A program made the position numbers and the translations under genes. The notes beneath the pieces are model-generated. The model was not told the origin of the DNA. It saw only the letters and a list, made by a program, of their open reading frames with translations, and made no database searches. A stretch of 62,463 bases of DNA, filler included, from Circinaria calcarea (taxonomy: Eukaryota): assembly GCA_051942165.1 (NCBI GenBank). It is 7 parts of 7 records of this genome, joined end to end, with 100 filler letters (N's around TTAATTAATTAA, not from the genome) between each part and the next. Parts side by side here need not be neighbours in the genome. Positions count along the whole stretch, not along the records: positions 53,650 to 62,463 come from JAVECS010001044.1; 6 more parts are not named here. The stretch is one strand, 5' to 3'. Shown here piece after piece: positions 27,848 to 62,463 of the stretch. How positions within the stretch are numbered: position 1 is the first letter of the stretch; each line of letters begins with the position of its first letter.

Positions 27848-30800
27848 GGTGACTGGAAGCTCGAGGGGAAGATGAGGAGAGAGAGGGGAGCTCGATCGAA
27901 GGCACGAATGTCACCAGAGATCCCGTGTGAATTGGATTGGTAAGCAGGCAAAGAAAAAACCAAAGAGGCAGTGACAAAAAGTAATCATGTATTAGGGCGC
28001 AGCAGGGCCAATCGACGAAATGATAGCATCAACGCTTCTGAGGGATTTCAAGTAAGCCCGCAGCGCGCGATGCTGTGCCAGAGTGTGTTAAGGCTCTCTG
28101 TAAGCGGTAGCAGAATGGTTGATCAAGGCCAACCAATCCCATACCAGTGCATTCGTGAGGGAAGGTGGAGAAGAATGGGAACAATATATCTCGGGGCAGC
28201 AGATAAGACGGTTGATGCGTAGGCGACGACATGGCTGCTGGTTCGATGCGACGTATGAGAAGTAAAAGCAGCTACCGACAGGATCAATGTAATGGTGACG
28301 GAATGAAGGTGACTGGACTCGGCATGTCGAGTCCCCAGCGACCAACTTCTTCTCCTCGTCCTCCTCTTCCTCTTCCACTTCCCCTCGCTCCAGGCACGAT
28401 GTCAGCAAAACGGGCACTCTAGTCATTAGGGTCTGGTAGGCATCAAAGGGATGGAGGCAGATCCTTGCGCGTGCATGGCAATATTGAGGTTCGATAGTAG
28501 CTTGGGACCCTACGGGCTCTCCTCACCTGAGCTCCGCACTCGTATCTTCCACGGATGACGCTTGCGCTCTCTCGCGTTCTCGGCATCGCATTCATAATCC
28601 GTTCCTCCTTCTAACGGCGGGTGGTGCGAGGAAGAGAAACATCAGGAAAGCAAAAATGGCGTGCAGGATGCAAGGCAGGGGGGTACCTTTACGGAGTACG
28701 GAGACACAGAATACCCTGCTTTCCTTTGTGCCACCATGACTGCCGCAACTGTATGGAACACAAGAAAATAAGGGCGACAGACACCGGGTGCGGAGATCAA
28801 ATCAATCGAGGGTACTTGCATAATCCTTATGCATTTCATTATTCGTCACGACCATATGGTACGGAGCACGTACCTTCGCACTCCGGACTCCGGACTGCGA
28901 AGGTACATGCACATGACGGAGGCCCCCCGCAGCTCACATGGCCGAGGTACATGTAAGCAATATATCGGACTTCATTCGATAGTCGCGCCATAGAGGCCGT
29001 GCTTCAAACATTTGCCTTTGGTCCAACAGTCGTCGTTCGGGGCCGGACCATCGGCAGCGATGACCCTCGGCGAGTACCAACGGTGGGCCCGACCAAATGC
29101 CGGAGAATTCGTGGCCAAGTCCGTCACCCCGACCGCTGACTAAACCAGAACTCAACTGTCAGCACTCCCCTCCATGTGCACTCTGATGATTAATCCAATC
29201 CAAAAGGCTTGGTTCCACCGGTATGGTCGAAGGATGCGTGCCATCCTGTGTTACCGGAACTCGGCCACAGTACCAATCCTACACATACCTCTTTACCGCC
29301 TTACTGCAGCATGGGTCATCCGATCCCAGTATTCCAACCGTCGCGCATAGTCCATCCTTCCAAGCCGCGTTGAAAATTGAAAAGAGAATACTGCGTGAGC
29401 AAAAGGCTCATACCCCAGTCTAGAATGTCAGACCAGGGACAGAGGATGGTTAGCGTGGGCAAATTCAGACTCTCAAACCGGCTCTCCTTCCACACCAAAT
29501 CCCAAGCTTACCTCAAATCTCCTCTCTAACCTCTTGTTATCAAGATATATAAAGGAGGCGAAAATCCATATTACAAGGAGTTTGGGCTATGCAAGCCCTG
29601 CGGGTTACTGCATACGTTCAATCACGTCGAATTCCCTCTTGCCATACACCCTTGCTAGACTTGTCTGCTGGCCATGAAGGCTGCCAGCTTTGCAGTATTC
29701 TTCAAATCAATTATTGGGTGACCTCGCAGCCCCCAATCTCAGAACTCAGCCAATGGCAAACCACTTCTCGACTGGTAAGATTTGGAAGGGCCGCACGTTG
29801 TGCCGGATTACCCTAGCCTTGTCCTGTTTGTGCTTTCGCACCTTACCTTTATTGCCAATGTCGTTTAGTCCAGATTTTACTAGAACTATTCAGGAGCTAA
29901 ATCTATTTCTTTTAATACGGCATAATTGGATCCTACAGGTTAAGCATATTCTCCTCTCGTTCTTTGTAGCTTTACGGTCGACAGTGATGATTACGTTGAA
30001 GTTACTTGCAGTTTCAAAACCAACTTATTGGTACGCTCTATTACTAATTTTAATTGCTGATTGGACCCGAGACGTATTTTGCACTTCTGTAGAATTTGAA
30101 TTGCTTGATTTAGGGGATTTGTATATATGATCTTATATTTTCAACTCGTTGCTTTTTGGTGAAGGAGTCAACTCGTCAAGAGGCTTTTCCGCGCAATATT
30201 TGAATGAATTCTAGGTGAAAGTCGGAGGATTCGAAATATATGAAAAAGATAACAGTGATAATAGAAAGCATACGTCTTCACTCACACTTGGAACGAGGTA
30301 ATTGACAGCTTATGCTGCCGGCAAACAAAGTTTGGGAAAAGTTTAACGTTTTCGTGCGAGCTTTATAAAGAGACGAAATTCCGTCAAGTCTGAATCAAGC
30401 TCTGCTTGGTCATCATCACCATCATATGTGCCTTTTCGAGCTTTTTCCAAACCTGGAGATCGCTCCCAGCTGTCGTGATATCTGAATCGATGGAAGCAAG
30501 TTAGAGATTCTCGCGAAGACTTTATCAACATTAAAATGCCTGCAGTATATTGACATACGAAGAATTTCCTCGGCCTAGGATCTCAGAAACTCCAAATTTA
30601 GGGGTTAAATACTTTGGTTATATAATTTGCGCATATTTTTGCACAAGAAAAGTTATCTTGATACACCCCATTACGACTAATAATTACTACGCGGAGGAGG
30701 CAAATTAAACCCGAGATGGATTTGACTAGCAAAATCATCAAGCCGAGTATACCGATCTTACTTCCAGTAATCTATCACAAGCCTGAACGAACCAAGGATA

Positions 30801-32940: not shown

Positions 32941-33064
32941 CGAGCATCCTGTGAAAGCGCGTATGGCGCTTTGCAGTGTTCGGGCGGGAAATATCACCAG
33001 AATTGGGTTCAAATCCCATCGAGCTTACCTTTTGGCTGGCTTGATGGTATCCCCGTCCTATTTT
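32941..33064 (+). ncRNA. Putative structured Pol III-type RNA / tRNA-related SINE head, copy 1
   Basis: Shares GTGAAAGC and an identical 27-nt core ATATCACCAGAATTGGGTTCAAATCCC (32991-33017) with 59262-59288. GGGCGGG pairs with CCCGTCC, followed by TTTT. The homology is seen directly; RNA function is inferred. Confidence 0.5.
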
Positions 33065-53649: not shown

Positions 53650-56600
53650 AAGGGAATTTCGTCGGAGGTGAGTTTGGAGTCAATGATGGCGGGTCATTCC
53701 AAGTCGGAGGTGACTTTGGAGAAGGTCAGAGGCGTGCCTGAAAGGTTAAGGGAGAGACAGATTATGGTAATTGCGTAAATGAAGATGGAAGAGGTGGAAA
53801 GATGAGGCTTCGTAGACGACTTCCATCCGTGGCCTTGGAGAATTCGCGAGTAATCAGTCCGCAGCTGCAACTTTCTCACCTGCGGTACCACGGACTTACG
53901 GGACCATTCCAACACGCATTGTGATGCAGGCCCGCCCAATTATCCAAGCCAGCTGATCAGAACAGTACCTGAGTCCGAGGGGTTAACGCTATAGAATCCC
54001 CCGATATCGAGAAAAGAAATTTGCTTCCTTTACCTTATCCATCCTCTCGACCATAGATTGATAGTGCACTCATTATCTGCTACTGTGGTGTAATCTACCT
54101 CGACCGAACGTCGGGGCGATTTCAATTCTCCTTTGGGTGATGAGCTAAAGCAGGTGATTTTGCATTAGATATGGTGGCACACTGCACATATCTCCACATG
54201 CTATCTCAATCCAAGAATTGGGTCGGGAAGTACCGTGTATGGGTTTGGGAATCGCCCGGTACCTGGGACTTGCTGAACCAAGATGTAGGCCACCATTGCT
54301 GGTACGTACCGTTGAAGACCATTCCGTCTCCTCAGACATTGCCGGACTGTGTGCCGGGTGAACATAGTATCCGTTAATCTATTTACTCAACCTTATATCC
54401 AAGCAACGCACGGTTTGTGCTGCTTGAGCAACAGCTTAAGCAATAGTTTTTAGAGCATATTAGGGTTTCCGCTAGACTATAGTTTAATATGGATGGAAGT
54501 CCCCTAGTTCGCGGCTTATTCTTTACTACTCTTTGTATCGTCATTGGCAAATACTTAATAGTGTACAGCTATGTGTATGAAGGGGTAGCGCCCGAAGAAG
54601 TGGTGCAGTGTGACGTTTTCCAAGTCGGACCTTATCACCATCCTCATGAGATCTGGTATATCAGACTCCCATAGTCGTCATTTTTAAAGGTTTGATCTGG
54701 TTTGTTGCCCTGGGTCTATCTTTTGCAAATCACTTCTCGCTATGATCTTCCCACCGTGTGAATGGCAGATTCCGTAATACCGCAACAATGAGACCTTGCA
54801 GATGACTTGTGAGACAGATCTAAACCAGGGATTAGACTCAAGTATCCGTCGCTTTACTAAACAGACGGGCCAAGCCAAAGCAATTATCAAAGCACAAAGG
54901 TTCCCAATTTTACTTCCTGACGGCAATAATCTCTACCGTTTGGTATCCTTCTCCCCATCCGAAACTATCCTGTTTCTTTCCTTCACCCAGAAAACCATCT
55001 CTCAATCTCTTCTTCAGCAATGTCCCTCCCTCCGCCAATCACTCTCCTTCCCGCAAATAACCTACTGTCTCCCCGCCTCCCCGCCAACATATTCTTTGCC
55101 ACGTTCACGATAATCCCGACTTACACCAGCACCATCGCAGACTAGCGAATCCGGTATTGGCCAATTGCGCCAGTTGACGAGATTGGAGTAAGTTTCTTCC
55201 TCTCTACCCATCATATTCGCAAGAGCGTATACGCCGGAGGCGGCGTTTGGGGAAAGAGAAAGGGGGGAGAGAGCAAATGGTACCGTTCCTTGACAGCTTG
55301 GGTTGACCCTAGCGTATGTAGAACACGTGTTGACAGAGCAATAGCCGTTCTAGTTAAAGTCAAGTCATATATTGCTGCTATGCTCTAAGAATTTCAGCTC
55401 TGGTGCAGATCGTAAAAATTTTCAATTTGGGAATGTACAGAACCGTATGAAACGCTGTATATATGCTAGACGACCTATGCCTGTGACGGAACGCGAGTAC
55501 TTACGGCACGACTTCGAGTTTGAGGAGCAGCTATGGGTGGCAGACTATTTGGAAAGATTCATGAGCATGCTGTACCATATATAGGCTGGTGATATAGGCT
55601 AGGGCAAGGCGTACAAGGTATTAGAGGTAGTACATGTGTTGAATGGAGCTCTGAAAAGCTTTTTATAGTGTAGAAATATTACTGTCATCATAACTTTCTT
55701 GCACCGATTCGGAACTTCCAAATTCATATTGTTGTAATATAAAATAGCTAAACTTGCCACCTAAAAAGCCGCCAGAAAACATACAAAGTATATTGATTAC
55801 TTACATATACGCCAGGGTCGACCCGAGTTGTCAAGGAACTGTATATGTTTCGTCCTTGGAGAACCCCTATTCCTTTTCTTCGATTACAAATGAGAACCGC
55901 TGATGGGTGTCTGTCGAATGAGTGAGGTCAATCTTGAATGCTCTCTCGGAGATGGCCATTTCCAGTTGTAGTTAATTTGCAGCAGTATGCTACCGGCATC
56001 TTTCTAAATCGAAGGGAAAAAACCTCATGTCAATGCACTTAAAAACACGACCAAGGCAGCTTAATGCATATGAAAGATGTAGAACTGGTAGAGGCAGACA
56101 CAATGGCATGGTGGAAGGGCGTGAGTGTGAATGGTAAGGAAAGGCAGGAAGCAGAGAAAGGCAGGATGCCAGTATTGCTGTAAGGGACCAAGCCGGTCCC
56201 CGTTAAAGCCGGTCCCTGTTACATGAAGCATCCCTTCCCAACCAAAGGTTCATCGTAAGCATCGAACGCCTTCTTGATAACGGGACAGTTGTGATGATAG
56301 GAATAAGTAAAGGACCACACATGTCCAAGGATCGTGCCGTAGTGGGGGTTCCCGCCGGGTGGAGCTTGGAATTAGCGCTGCATGGCACAGAAGGAAAGGA
56401 GATGATTGGCGCACTTATCGGTAGAGAGTACATGGTACATATACGCGATCGCTGTCCCACATTATTACTGGGAGTCCCCATTCGCCCTGCAGATTCTAGA
56501 CTCAAACAAACGAGCGCCGAAGATTCTTATTGGACTTGCCCTTCACCAAGGTTCAGCCACTTTGGGATGATCACGCATGATGCACGAGATTCCAATATGA

Positions 56601-56740
56601 CGGGATTTGAGGTACTTGTTAACTGACATATCAATCTGCCGGAACCTACCGTGGGGATCCCGAGGCTCATCAACGCGCTGACAGTCTACCAGGAACGGTG
56701 AGTCCAACCGTCCTACAGAGTACGGACTCCGCCGGCTAGT

Positions 56741-56894
56741 ATACACAGGGGCTGTATTATGAATGATACAGACCCTGAACCTATTTCGTACACAAAAAGG
56801 GTCCGTGCAATAGAATATACAGGGGCCATATTATGATAAATACTGACCTTGATCCCTGTTTTCCCACATAAAAACGACCCGTGCAGTAAAATAT
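56741..56894. repeat. Diverged two-unit tandem repeat, period about 74 bp
   Basis: acaggggc..tattatga..atac.gacc.tga..cct.ttt..cac.aaaa..ccgtgca.ta.aatat occurs twice (acagggg at 56745 and 56819). Confidence 0.8.
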
Positions 56895-57471
56895 CACCCT
56901 GGTGTATTCTATCTTAAGCGAAGCCGAATTGCTTTTTCCGACTATCATCTGCCCCGGTGATGCCGTCGTCCCTGGTACTTGTCATTAAAGTTTCAGGACC
57001 AAGAAACTGGCCTAATCCAATCAAGCGGCTGGAGTCATGATCGACTAGAAAGTACCGGCGGCTGGCATCTAACCCGGACAGGAAGAGGTCGCTCCCTGGA
57101 AGCTGGATCGATCCTTTTAATTCGACTGCTATAGATAATGTCCGACATCCCCAGGCCCTGGCCTCTAACGAGCACCTGAACCAGGATACACCTCGGAGTC
57201 CCATTTCCAAGTCTGCGCCTCGGGGCCGTCGCGTATCGTATCCTTTCAGTTGTAAGAAAAAGGAAAAGCGCATCTCCCAAGACAAATCCGGCATGGCGCC
57301 AGATTTGTTTTCCACAGTACAACCTCTCCGAGTCTCCAGATCGATTTGCACACAGTGGTTGTCCAACAATGCTGGCTGGGAGAGTCCATGATATGTCTGC
57401 ATGGTTTTGGCCGTCCTGTGCCCTCACGGTCTCTTTATATATATGACTGGCTTTCCGATTGATTTCCTGCA

Positions 57472-58850
57472 ATGTCAACGAGTAACCGTCATCCCAAGGC
57501 CACTCCCGATGACTATGGACCGGTGATCAATATCATTACCTGGTTTCTTCTGGTGACGACTACTCTTGCAGTTATCGTTCGAATCGCAACCAAACTAGCA
57601 ATATCCCGCAGGACCGACGCAGATGATTACGTTACGTTTGTTGCTCTTGTAAGGATTTTGCTGTCTTTACGAACCAGGACGTACTGAGCGTTTTACCAGT
57701 TCTTCAGCATTGCACAGGTGGTTGCAGTATCCTTACAGACCGCAGCTGGACTTGGTCAGCATGCTGATACCCTGAGCCCTTTGAACTTGGAGAGATTCCA
57801 ACAGGTGAATCTGGATCCTGTCCACGGAAATCGTTGTCTATACGCATACTGACCACATACAGACCGGGTACGCTGCGAGTCTACTTTATATCGCCACGCT
57901 CTGTTTTTCCAAAATCTCAGTAGCCTTGCTCCTTCAAACCATTACACCGGTGCAGCTACACAAGCAGATGACTCTGGCTGTGGGTGCGGTGACCGTTCTT
58001 TGGACCGTTATAGCGATGTTTGGGCTTGCCTTTCAATGTCATCTACCCTACCCGTGGAGGTTCATTGATAACGCATGCTTCAATCAGGTAGGTAGCAATT
58101 CTCTGACGCGCAGACTGTACCTCTCGAGCAGATACTCATGGAATCCAGACTGTGTTTTGGAACTTCGTCCAGGCTTTCAATATGCTCATTGATGTAGCTC
58201 TTGTACTGCTACCGTTGTTTATCGTCTGGCGAGTTCAGGTTGGAGCAGGCAAGAAAGTCGTTGTCTTTGCATGTTTTGCAATTCGCATCGTGTAAGGGAT
58301 TCTCGCTGCTTTTTCGTTATTGGCTGATGATTTCAAAAGGGTGATAGCCGCTGTTGCTGCCCAGCTTGCCTTTTTCAACCGCGCTACGAGCTCGAATGAT
58401 CCTACGTTCACCATCTGGCCCATGGTTATCTGCGCTCAGCTAGTGCAAAGTCTGAGCATTGTCACCGCTTGTATTCCCTATCTCAAACCCTTCCTTCAAA
58501 GCCTTGAGTCGGGTATGATCAGGAGCGATGATCTTCGACGGCGCGGTATGAACGGCACTCCCCAATACGGTACCGCGCACTCACAGCGGTCCGTCGATCA
58601 TACACAGTCCAAGAGTTCCTCCAAGCCTGCCAGAATACTTCAGGAAAAATCCCTCGAGCTGAATCAAATCTCCCGCGGCTATGTTCCTCCCTTCAAAGGC
58701 CAGAATTCCACTACGGTTACGACGGCGGGCAAGGACGGCCACGAGTGGGACGCGGATAGCCAAACGAGTCAATCCAAGATTATCAAGCAGACCACGACAT
58801 GGCAGGTCGATACCGAGTCTCAAGTCGTGGGGGCAGGGCACGCCAGATAG
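57472..58850 (+). CDS. PTH11-like (fungal rhodopsin-domain) integral membrane protein without CFEM
   Basis: Five exons. AVIVRIATK..DDYVTFVAL|..GLGQH..|GYAASLLYIATLCFSKIS..AFQCHLPYPW..C..|..DVALVLLP..|..IVTACIPYLKPFLQSLESG. Confidence 0.88.
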
Positions 58851-59209
58851 CCCGACACCAACGGAGAATTGTACAATCGGGGGAATATGGGATGACAGGA
58901 TTGGGGCGTCCGGTAGTGTCAATAGAGCGAGGATAGATTTTCACCTTTGTAGGCATAGAATTTAGAGCCGGCGCCCTGAGCCGCGGCCGGTGGTGTCTGT
59001 GCTCCACAAAGTTAGCGTGTAAACCATGTACGGAAATTTTACATACCTAATGTATGAAAATACTTAAGGGTCTCGAGATCGACCAATCAAACGTCCTTGA
59101 AGGTCCTCGTGGAATCATCCGCCCTTAACGCCGCTTAGCTTATCCTAGCCTCATATCGGGGAAGGTACCCAATCGAAAAAGACCAAGTCTGGACCCCGGT
59201 AATCTTTTC

Positions 59210-59333
59210 CGAGTTTATCCCCGGTGAAAGCCGCGGGAGCGCAATCAAAAATATGGAGGGGATATCACCAGAATTGGGTTCAAATCCCGGTAGCGCTACT
59301 CTTTGGTGGTTGGTGGTTCCCCCCTCCAGTTTT
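59210..59333 (+). ncRNA. Putative structured Pol III-type RNA / tRNA-related SINE head, copy 2
   Basis: CCCCGGT-GAAA-GCCGCGGG hairpin. TGGAGGGG (59254-59261) pairs with CCCCTCCA (59321-59328). Internal GGG-TTCAAAT-CCC, then TTTT at 59330-59333. Homologous to 32941-33064. Confidence 0.5.
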
Positions 59334-59828
59334 CTCCTGGGATACTGGGCGATCGCACCAGCGGCAATCGCATTTCTTTTTTCACGTTATCGTGTCGTTA
59401 CCATTACTCCGTACCAAGCATTTTTAGCCTTGGCCCGCGGCGATAATACTACCCTGATGCCGCGAACCCTCGATCCGTTGCTCCAGGCACCATTTCCCCA
59501 GAGTCTTGGACTAAAGTGGGTATACCGTCCGTCGCTCGGATATGATTTCATTTCACTTGCCTCTGCCAGAGTCGCTTGAACCACTAAACGGTTGCGTTAA
59601 CATGCCGGCGATGGCGTAGCTCGCACTGGCCTGAGGCATGGAAGACCCACCAGGCCCATGTCGGTTAGACGCAGGGGAAATACCCAGGCTATTGTCCTTC
59701 AGCATGGTGACAGTGGACATGGTTTCCCTCCCGCCATCTATCATCCTCAACAACTGCTTATGTGGGGGGAGCCCCCTCTCTCCTTTCCCATCAGCGCATT
59801 CCTGCCGCACTGAAGACTTTCGGCCATC

Positions 59829-61940
59829 ATGTACGAGGCGCAAGAGCTGGAGATGATGGACAACGTCCAGATGAGAAAGGCCCCGCAGACGAGTCAGATC
59901 GAGGCCGGTGTTTCTTATGACCGGGACAGAGATGAATTGGCTCGCCTGGGCAAGAAACAGGTGCTCAAGGTCTGTATCAGAACTCCGAGGGAGACTGTTA
60001 TGTGCTAATTCTTTACAGCGTCAATTCGGGTTCATGAGGTAAGGTTCGGACGCTTCAATGCTCCAAGGCGCGAGATTAACTCTGGCGCAAACAGTATACT
60101 GGGGTTCAGCTGCACAATCATGGTCACCTGGGAGGGCATGCTGGTGTGAGTGTTGCCTGCAATTAGGTATTGGACTTGGCTGATGAATGGCGCAGGATCT
60201 TTTTGTCCGGATTCACCAAGTGAGTTGGTACCAGACATAAAAGTTCAGTTGGCCTTGACTTATGTACATTCTAGTGGAGGACCAGCAGGGTTGGTTTATG
60301 GTTATATCGTTGTCTGGATTGGCACCGCAGCCATCTTCGTCACGTTGGCAGAGCTAGCGTCAATGTACGTGTCGACACATTTGGTGCCATTCCTGGGCTA
60401 ATTGAGATAAACAAAGGGCTCCAACCTCCGGCGGTCAATATCACTGGGTTTATATGCTTGCGCCTCCTTCTTCGCGAAAGTTTCTTAGCTATGTTACAGG
60501 TTCGCAGTGGTCTCTACTACGGAGCGATATGAGCTGAGAAAATCAGGCTGGCAGACGGTTGCTGGTTGGCAAGCATTCGTTGCTTCCGGTGGCTACCTCA
60601 GCGGTACAATCATCCAAGGCATCATTGCCTTGAATCGTCCGGATTACAACTTCCAGCGCTGGCATGGAACTCTGCTCTTCTGGGCAGTGGTTTTTATCGC
60701 AGTACTCGTCAATACAGTCGTCATTAGCGCGTTACCAAAAATCGAAGGTTTCATTCTAGTTATTCACATCTTAGGCTTTTTCGCTCTTCTGATCCCCTTG
60801 GTATACCTGGGTCCACATGGGACTGCTGCGGACGTCTTTACTGTGTTTCTCAACGAAGGCGGTTGGCCTACCCAAGGGCTTTCATTCTGCGTCGGGATTA
60901 TCGGGAATGTGTTTGCTTTTCTTGGTTGGTTCTGCATCCACTGCAATGCTTATCCAGCCTTTGCTAATAGCTTTCGCTAGGTGCCGACGGCGCTATTCAT
61001 GTATGGCCCTACACAGTGATTTTGGGACTTGACTTATCCAATTCTAGATGTCCGAAGAGATTCAGAATGCCTCGACAGTCGTCCCCCGCTCGATGATGAC
61101 AAGTATCATGTTAAACGGCACCTTGGGTTTCGGCATGCTCATCGCGACTCTGTTCTGTCTTGTGGACATTCAAGCCGTGCTTGAAACCAGAACCGGATAT
61201 CCTTTTATCGAAATCTTCTACCTAGCCACGGGTTCCATAGGTGGAAGTACCGCCATGGCTTCTGTTATTAGTCTCCTTGGCCTTTGCTCTACCATTGGGC
61301 TTCTAGCTTCTTCCTCTAGACTTACATGGGCATTTGCTCGGGATCGCGGTCTTCCAGGTTGGCGAATTTTAAGCAAAGTATGTCAAGACCAATTGGTTTT
61401 GATATCGCAAGTCTACATATTAACTCGTAATGGCAGGTCGAACCTCGCAGCTCTCTTCCTCTGTGGTCAGTAGGGGTCACGACCGCGATTGCCTGTCTCT
61501 TAGGCCTCATCAGCATTGGCTCCAGCACCGCCTTTAATCAAGTCATCTCCCTAACGATCAACGGTACCTTCGCCTCCTATCTCATCGCCTGTGCTCTTCT
61601 CCTCTGGCGACGCATCAGGGGCGATATCAAAATGGTCCACGATGGACCCCATGCCTTCTCCACCACCACCAATTCTCCAACCACCGATGTCCAGCTCACC
61701 TGGGGTCCGTGGCGGGTTCCAGGGGCATTGGGAACGGTGGTGAATGCGATCGGCTGCGCCTTTATGCTCTTCGTCCTCTTCTTCAGCTTCTGGCCGCCCG
61801 TGACGCCGACGACGGCGCCGACAATGAATTTCAGCGTCTTGGTCGGCGGGGCCGTGTTTGTCTTTAGTGTGGTGTATTACTTTGTCTGGGCGCGCAAGTT
61901 TTATACGGGACCGGTTGTGGAGATTGAGATGGGGAAGTAG
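59829..61940 (+). CDS. Amino acid/choline transporter (ACT family; Hnm1/GABA permease-like)
   Basis: DRDELARLGKKQVLK|RQFGFMS|ILGFSCTIMVTWEG..|..TN|GGPAGLVYG..LAELASM|APTSGGQYHWV..|..HMSEEIQNAS..SRLTWAFARDRGLP..WGPW..YTGPVVE*. Many short exons. Confidence 0.95.
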
Positions 61941-62463
61941 GGGGCCTTGGATGCGAGATGAGGGTATGAAAGATATGCTTTATTTTTTGAGGGAAGGTAG
62001 GGGAATGGGGGGAGGAAAGGGGATGGATTCTATATGTAGCATTGGATAAACTGCTGGTTTCTCTTGTAAATATACAAGAACAAAAAAGGGTCCGGTTCAC
62101 TTCCGGAAAAACAACACGGGTATCTGTAACAAGTTCATGTATGTTTTTAGGCTTTGGCTTGTTCAGTTTCCGTTTCTCTCCCCGTTGCCTCTTTTCCTGC
62201 TAGAGAGCCCTGGCTTTTATTTTTAATTATTTTCCCTCACGCACCAGGGAGCCCGAGCAATCCGAACGAGCAGTTTTGTTTTGTTTGGCAATCACATTAT
62301 ATCGCTCCCTCGTTCTGGTACTGGTAAAATAGTTAAATCTCCCGATCCCACTCCAATTCCCGGTCCCCACCTCCGTTACCATTTCATTTCGGATATCATT
62401 CCTCCCCCTCCTTTTTTTTCTCTTCTTTCCCCTTTCTTTCCCCTTCATAGCATAGTCATGCCC

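Follow-up and report, generated by a model that had tools for sequence, protein, structure and literature searches.

A candidate minimal SINE-like Pol III unit dispersed in Circinaria calcarea

The SINEs described from fungi are 140-900 bp long, and Aspergillus fumigatus harbours tRNA-derived SINEs with heads that fail to form a cloverleaf (PMC5063351). AfuSINE2, MgSINE and Foxy are presented in the same source as short, dispersed and non-coding elements in which an internal tRNA-type box B is accompanied by a more degenerate box A; a unit of Circinaria calcarea that is described here shares these properties, its box A being a candidate only. With AfuSINE2 the unit further has in common a head without cloverleaf fold and a low to moderate copy number. 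However, AfuSINE2, MgSINE and Foxy possess a body unrelated to tRNA and a tail within their 140-900 bp (PMC5063351), whereas the unit presented here has a length of about 125 nt without either, ends with a GC-rich stem followed by a run of four T (T4) and is flanked by non-significant 5-mers. A second group for comparison is formed by the miniature LTR retrotransposons of the TRIMp3/Helenus type, which have a tRNA-like Pol III promoter in the LTR. Helenus LTRs have tRNA-like boxes A and B, go down to 120 bp in length and are often preserved as solo LTRs, and fungal Helenus elements generate 5-bp target duplications (PMC10886601). The likeness to our unit comprises a tRNA-like box B with a candidate box A in a short repeat, the solo copies and the 5-bp repeats on the flanks.

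In the unit, as in tRNA (RF00005) and mascRNA (RF01684), a T-arm has TTCAAAT as its loop, the closing stem measures 7 bp and a T-run comes shortly after it, and the unit's span of about 73-77 nt from stem to stem is that of a tRNA. Unlike in tRNA and mascRNA, 32 nt separate the T hairpin from the 3' strand of the closing stem, and there is no D or anticodon arm. Vault and Y RNAs are small Pol III RNAs of about 100 nt with paired ends, and vault RNA has an internal type 2 promoter; by this description the unit is alike in its size near 100 nt and in its paired 5' and 3' regions. Neither vault nor Y RNAs are known from fungi. The proposal of a vault or Y RNA architecture, made in an earlier sequence-only reading of this DNA, gained no support from sequence or models, as no Rfam match to such RNAs appeared up to E 10, and unlike these RNAs the unit is present or absent between close relatives.

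The window analysed in this study, a stretch of 62,463 nt, consists of seven segments of about 8.85 kb each with N spacers between them. Copy 1 of the unit (32941-33064, plus strand, about 124 nt) is located in segment 4 and was delimited by alignment and nhmmer (E 3e-41). Copy 2 (59210-59333, plus strand, about 124 nt) is located in segment 7; its limits are given by the points where the likeness to copy 1 stops and by an orthologous contig of a relative which skips 59207-59356. Our preferred explanation, to which we attribute an even chance of being correct, is a SINE-like Pol III unit of tRNA origin that is very short (about 125 nt), has no tail and carries a closing stem that aids termination at the weak T4. 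Most likely, the family spreads through the genome like SINEs, copied via RNA, which we consider more probable than a new cellular RNA gene.

The relationship of the two copies is evident from their comparison. A shared order of motifs with an identical 27-mer at both loci had been claimed by the sequence-only reading and was confirmed: the 27-mer (59262-59288 in copy 2, 32991-33017 in copy 1) has exactly two matches in the window, both on the plus strand, still two if up to three mismatches are allowed, with zero matches expected by chance (100 shuffles). The pair is also the sole inter-segment blastn match at E<0.01 (65 nt, 83%, E 1.9e-8). Within the whole unit 75 of 124 positions are identical, and outside the 27-mer 48 of 97 (about 49%), with indels. 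In a test for uneven conservation, a matching run of at least 27 positions was reached in only 2 of 200,000 column shuffles, and this degree of preservation exceeds what neutral decay of the 27-mer would allow; box B accounts for just 11 of the 27 bases. Because conservation of the 27-mer exceeds that of the remaining unit by far, a functional small-RNA family retains some probability and is weighed below.

The second zone of likeness is a U/G-rich block in the 3' part (59301-59329, plus strand), which follows the pattern TTTGG.TGG.TTG.TGGT..CCCC.TCC and has a local alignment score of 24 as against an average of 12.3 for shuffles, 6 of 5000 of which came up to it. The 5' block CCGGTGAAAGCCGCG (59220-59234, copy 1: 32947-32960, plus strand) is marginal (78 of 5000 shuffles), and in its pattern CC.GTGAAAG(C)CGCG the words are kept, whereas the hairpin is not. 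The 60-nt flanks of the two copies are unrelated, their likeness being reached by 4638 and 4844 of 5000 shuffles, in agreement with the divergence of the flanks noted before. Given the 27-mer and the 3' block between unrelated flanks, the two loci are one homologous unit of about 115-125 nt and not two separate captures of one tRNA fragment. The high divergence would fit old copies or subfamilies. Further copies in the window were not found by nhmmer with a two-copy profile (next match E 3.1), and neither blastn nor nhmmer revealed sequence related to the 3' end elsewhere in the window.

Further copies were detected in X1, a biocrust metagenome DNA run that contains 0.06 of the sampled words and whose contigs were placed on 56500-62463 at a likeness of at least 80%. 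X1 holds a relative that is about 90% identical across nearly the whole of segment 7. An orthologous contig of 2850 nt (about 90% identical) covers 57118-59154 and 59357-60044, which includes both flanks of copy 2, and skips 59207-59356, where 35 other letters are found instead. Part of these letters aligns by eye with 59335-59356, so that the missing stretch equals the unit to within a few bases at each end. Because the site holds 35 other letters and is not clean, a deletion in the relative is a possible alternative to an insertion. The core is also present, in paralogous copies, on at least six further contigs of X1, which have about single-copy depth each and a total depth of 39.6. With AA at positions 59289-59290, five of them have a perfect 5-bp T stem, and a contig of 2396 nt is aligned to 59249-59325 with 2 gaps and 7 differing letters. 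For the 27-mer among the X1 copies, no substitution with a summed depth of at least 7.4 is listed. On the basis of the skipped site and the paralogous contigs, the unit can be regarded as discrete, multi-copy in a second genome and present or absent at an orthologous site between relatives, and such presence and absence makes a mobile element likelier than a cellular RNA gene that is fixed. The earlier idea of a multicopy family is therefore retained, with two copies here and at least six paralogous contigs in X1; a large family, also proposed, is not demonstrated by about six X1 copies at a likeness of at least 80%.

A MITE-like repeat at 56737-56912 is made up of a tandem pair of units, each about 75 nt long, with 71-77% likeness and inverted ends, and its arms (56810-56832 and 56890-56912) are 78% complementary. 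This repeat is multi-copy in the relative, with 6-7 X1 contigs that pile up to a depth of up to 90. In one X1 contig a copy of the element (to 59300) is joined to MITE-like sequence (from 56860), which points to an insertion of one within or beside the other in the relative. The word AATATCACC is common to the element and the MITE-like repeat, which may be chance.

As a dispersed and discrete unit that is present or absent between relatives and has tRNA-type promoter signals, the element behaves, by its DNA, like a SINE. As is characteristic of SINE2 elements, it is short and multi-copy with unrelated flanks. The SINE2 3' tail, whether A-rich, simple-repeat or LINE-derived, is absent from the unit, which ends with ...CCCC(G/C)TCC, two bases and TTTT. 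The flanking 5-mers TTATG and TTTTC are candidate target-site duplications, and a shared 5-mer was obtained in 35% and 47% of the shuffles. The missing tail and body, these non-significant 5-mers, the unclean empty site, the overly kept 27-mer and the size are reasons against a canonical SINE. In the sequence-only reading the element had also been considered the conserved head of an old tRNA-derived SINE. The tRNA-derived, SINE-type part of this view is partly supported; the head of a longer SINE is not, since the likeness stops at the ends of the unit and the stretch missing in the relative matches these ends to within a few bases, so that the unit of about 125 nt represents the whole element. 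Its limits, approximately from where Pol III would start to the T-run, fit the retroposition of a complete Pol III transcript.

Box B GGTTCAAATCC (59277-59287, plus strand) is an exact match to the consensus in both copies. By itself, it is not significant (two in the window vs 1.07 expected, at least two in 29 of 100 shuffles). It is located in a T-arm-like hairpin, TTGGG/TTCAAAT/CCCGG (59274-59290, plus strand), that is present in the MFE fold of copy 2, and the outer stem proposed earlier to enclose this T-arm and its B box was recovered in the MFE folds of both copies. Weak box-A-like words were recognized by eye only, namely GAGCGCAATCA (59237-59247, plus strand) and, in copy 1, TGGCGCTTTGC (32963-32973, plus strand). 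The Rfam tRNA model takes AGCGCAA as acceptor strand, with 13.8 bits and thus below the gathering score of 29. The unit starts about 28 nt ahead of the weak box A, which is further upstream than expected for a tRNA-type start site.

The T4 run (59330-59333, copy 1: 33061-33064, plus strand) is a putative stem-assisted Pol III terminator with the same offset in both copies. It was previously placed directly after the stem; the run itself exists in both copies, and the actual spacing is 2 nt. In budding yeast, T4 was reported to require a neighbouring RNA stem in order to work in vitro; for yeast Pol III it is nearly inert in vitro and becomes moderately efficient once an RNA stem forms just upstream, as with tRNA acceptor stems (PMC9278858). 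By analogy, this rescue would provide a concrete role for the GC-rich stem 2 nt ahead of T4. About 45 nt downstream of copy 2, a T3CT6 run (59373-59382) could act as a reserve terminator for Pol III; no T3CT6-like run is present within the approximately 335 nt read downstream of copy 1.

For the SINE-like unit we infer transcription, termination, an RNA intermediate and a copying enzyme, which may act together as follows. The exactly kept box B/T-arm would recruit TFIIIC, possibly aided by the degenerate box A about 40 nt upstream, and Pol III would initiate near the 5' limit of the unit. The transcript is predicted to fold as a stem-closed three-way junction of an outer stem P1, an inner stem P2, the T hairpin and a third hairpin P3, and the GC-rich P1, closing 2 nt ahead of T4, could turn the weak T-run into an effective terminator. 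The whole transcript, from the start site to the U-run, would then be reverse-transcribed into DNA by an enzyme acting in trans.

Another explanation we consider unlikely: the copies could be functional small Pol III RNA genes, derived from a tRNA, about 75-115 nt long and stem-closed, with the 27-mer as binding or recognition site and a turnover between species like that of tRNA genes. The MFE folds of both copies contain the GC-rich 7-bp stem P1 on the plus strand, with GGAGGGG as 5' strand (59255-59261; copy 1: 32982-32988, GGGCGGG) and CCCCTCC as 3' strand (59321-59327; copy 1: 33052-33058, CCCGTCC). It differs by one two-sided change, C-G to G-C, and one single-sided change, G-U to A-U; the compensatory swap described earlier is thus real, in two sequences only. 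The survival of the stem through this double change is what would be expected of RNA genes, and the limitation of the covariation to two sequences weakens the point. The 5' strands of P1 are offset by 2 nt relative to the 27-mer, and MAFFT gives no column-for-column alignment there. P2 is formed by ATCACCA with TGGTGGT (59264-59270/59311-59317, plus strand), with 7 bp in the MFE fold of copy 2; in copy 1, six of the seven pair (C.A mismatch), with a shifted 6-bp alternative at 1.7 kcal/mol above the MFE. Inside P1, the MFE fold of copy 2 comprises P2, the T hairpin and the U/G-rich hairpin P3. The MFE fold of copy 1 differs inside P1, and a comparable three-way junction, with P2 moved by two bases, is 1.7 kcal/mol higher. 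The availability of a similar junction in both copies favours small-RNA genes; against them count the different MFE folds, the C.A mismatch in P2 and inner helices that are out of register between the copies.

Folding of the plus strand gave -34.0 kcal/mol (z -3.04) for copy 2 and -32.6 kcal/mol (z -3.60) for copy 1, compared with -25.4 (z -1.57) and -25.9 (z -1.76) for the minus strand. The stronger fold of the plus strand is consistent with how box B and the T-run are oriented, and that both copies beat the shuffles on this strand only is a further point for RNA genes, together with the exact 27-mer in an otherwise 49% identical unit, the change of GG to AA in five X1 copies, which leaves the T stem paired, and the stem adjoining T4, which is the layout of a gene end. 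A GAAA hairpin upstream, part of the original description, turned out not to be conserved: it forms in copy 2 only, the bases are paired otherwise in copy 1, and the upstream consensus of two X1 copies, read by eye, contains none. This loss, the absence of the unit at the orthologous site of a relative that is about 90% identical, and the lack of an Rfam family up to E 10 argue against small-RNA genes. As a model from two sequences, the shared structure is suggestive only. An RNAalifold fold of the two sequences, with a different inner structure and a misaligned outer stem, was set aside. It is likewise unlikely that the copies are genes of an undescribed ascomycete family of small Pol III RNAs with a tRNA as ancestor, in which a stem-closed domain of tRNA size holds a T hairpin and an invariant 14-nt functional recognition site, single-stranded or part of P2, and new genes arise by retroposition of the complete transcription unit.

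The search for known RNAs at Rfam gathering thresholds yielded no match in the whole window. Up to E 10, copy 2 showed only sub-threshold matches to mascRNA (15.8 bits, gathering 42.5) and tRNA (13.8 bits, gathering 29), and copy 1 only the bare T hairpin as a tmRNA fragment of 6.7 bits, with no tRNA match. ARAGORN detected no tRNA in the window, with or without introns, and this is in line with the early observation that the element does not fold as a cloverleaf. A tRNA gene was rejected; lowered ARAGORN thresholds gave contradictory calls (Leu-caa, Cys-gca and Lys-ctt). The 91-nt class II 'tRNA-Leu(caa)' at 59247-59337 (95% threshold), which uses the TTCAAAT hairpin as anticodon arm and an A-run/T-run as acceptor stem, is taken as spurious because copy 1 does not reproduce it. 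A coding function was rejected too, on account of the indels between the copies and the lack of a Pfam match above cut-off: a 146-aa ORF across copy 2 uses a frame with stops in copy 1, and one plus-strand frame is open for about 41 codons in both copies.

Word searches of prokaryote genome and metagenome contigs provided no additional copies. A 21-mer was found in none of these contigs of either kind. An 18-mer occurred at 119 or more metagenome loci; among the matches listed, 0 of 119 had the T-loop continuation and 101 of 119 shared one continuation, apparently of a bacterial coding gene. A literature search by sequence string with three core substrings found no paper, and terminal inverted repeats of the unit were not seen by eye.

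Quite unlikely, in our estimation, is a repeat that acts at the DNA level without an RNA product of its own, either as TFIIIC site or boundary element or as decayed fragment of a tRNA pseudogene. Box B and its surroundings are indeed the best-kept part, box A is weak, termination at T4 alone is poor in yeast (PMC9278858), and the sub-threshold matches to tRNA (13.8 bits) and mascRNA (15.8 bits) are tRNA-like. However, this would leave unexplained the conservation of the 3' block, reached by 6 of 5000 shuffles, the compensatory outer stem with the strand-specific fold and the equal offset of the T-run in both copies, and the ARAGORN calls at lowered thresholds are mutually inconsistent. Solo LTRs of the TRIMp3/Helenus type are very improbable: a 5-base direct repeat does flank both copies, but such 5-mers also occur in 35% and 47% of the shuffles and are non-significant; instead of TG...CA, copy 2 has CG...AG as its ends and copy 1 TG...TT, with ATT as its last bases if its limits are set by the 5-mers; neither a second copy nor a primer-binding site or polypurine tract is present nearby; nhmmer finds only two copies; and fungal Helenus elements are reported only from Pucciniales and a few Agaricomycetes (PMC10886601), whereas the window looks ascomycete.

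If the SINE-like nature is correct, the unit would be among the shortest fungal retroposon-like elements, consisting of a Pol III transcription unit alone, in which a stem would assist the T4 terminator. As tRNA and Rfam scans miss it, the annotation of repeats would then profit from it, and it could serve as an insertion marker among related fungi. Should the 27-mer instead be kept for a cellular function, fungi would possess a family of small Pol III RNAs of a type undescribed in them.

Regarding the genomic surroundings, no RIP signature was found near either copy. Around copy 1 (29.4-35.7 kb) no ORF of at least 70 aa has a Pfam match, and G+C varies from 0.36 to 0.51 per 500 bases. Segments 4 and 7 encode a fungal Zn2Cys6 domain, a membrane protein with fungal rhodopsin domain and an amino-acid permease, the last divided among exon-like ORFs. 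The large ORFs of the window correspond to an SNF2 helicase with DUF7607, a 5-aminolevulinate-synthase-like aminotransferase, for which the Atlas match with most features in common is an ascomycete cluster, and a GH3 enzyme. At 889-991, a stretch of 55 nt recurs at an offset of 48 nt with 93% identity, and this repeat falls within a long ORF with DUF7607 and the beginning of the SNF2 domain. In segment 4, a 45-nt palindrome with a self-complementarity of 89% is located at 28866-28910.
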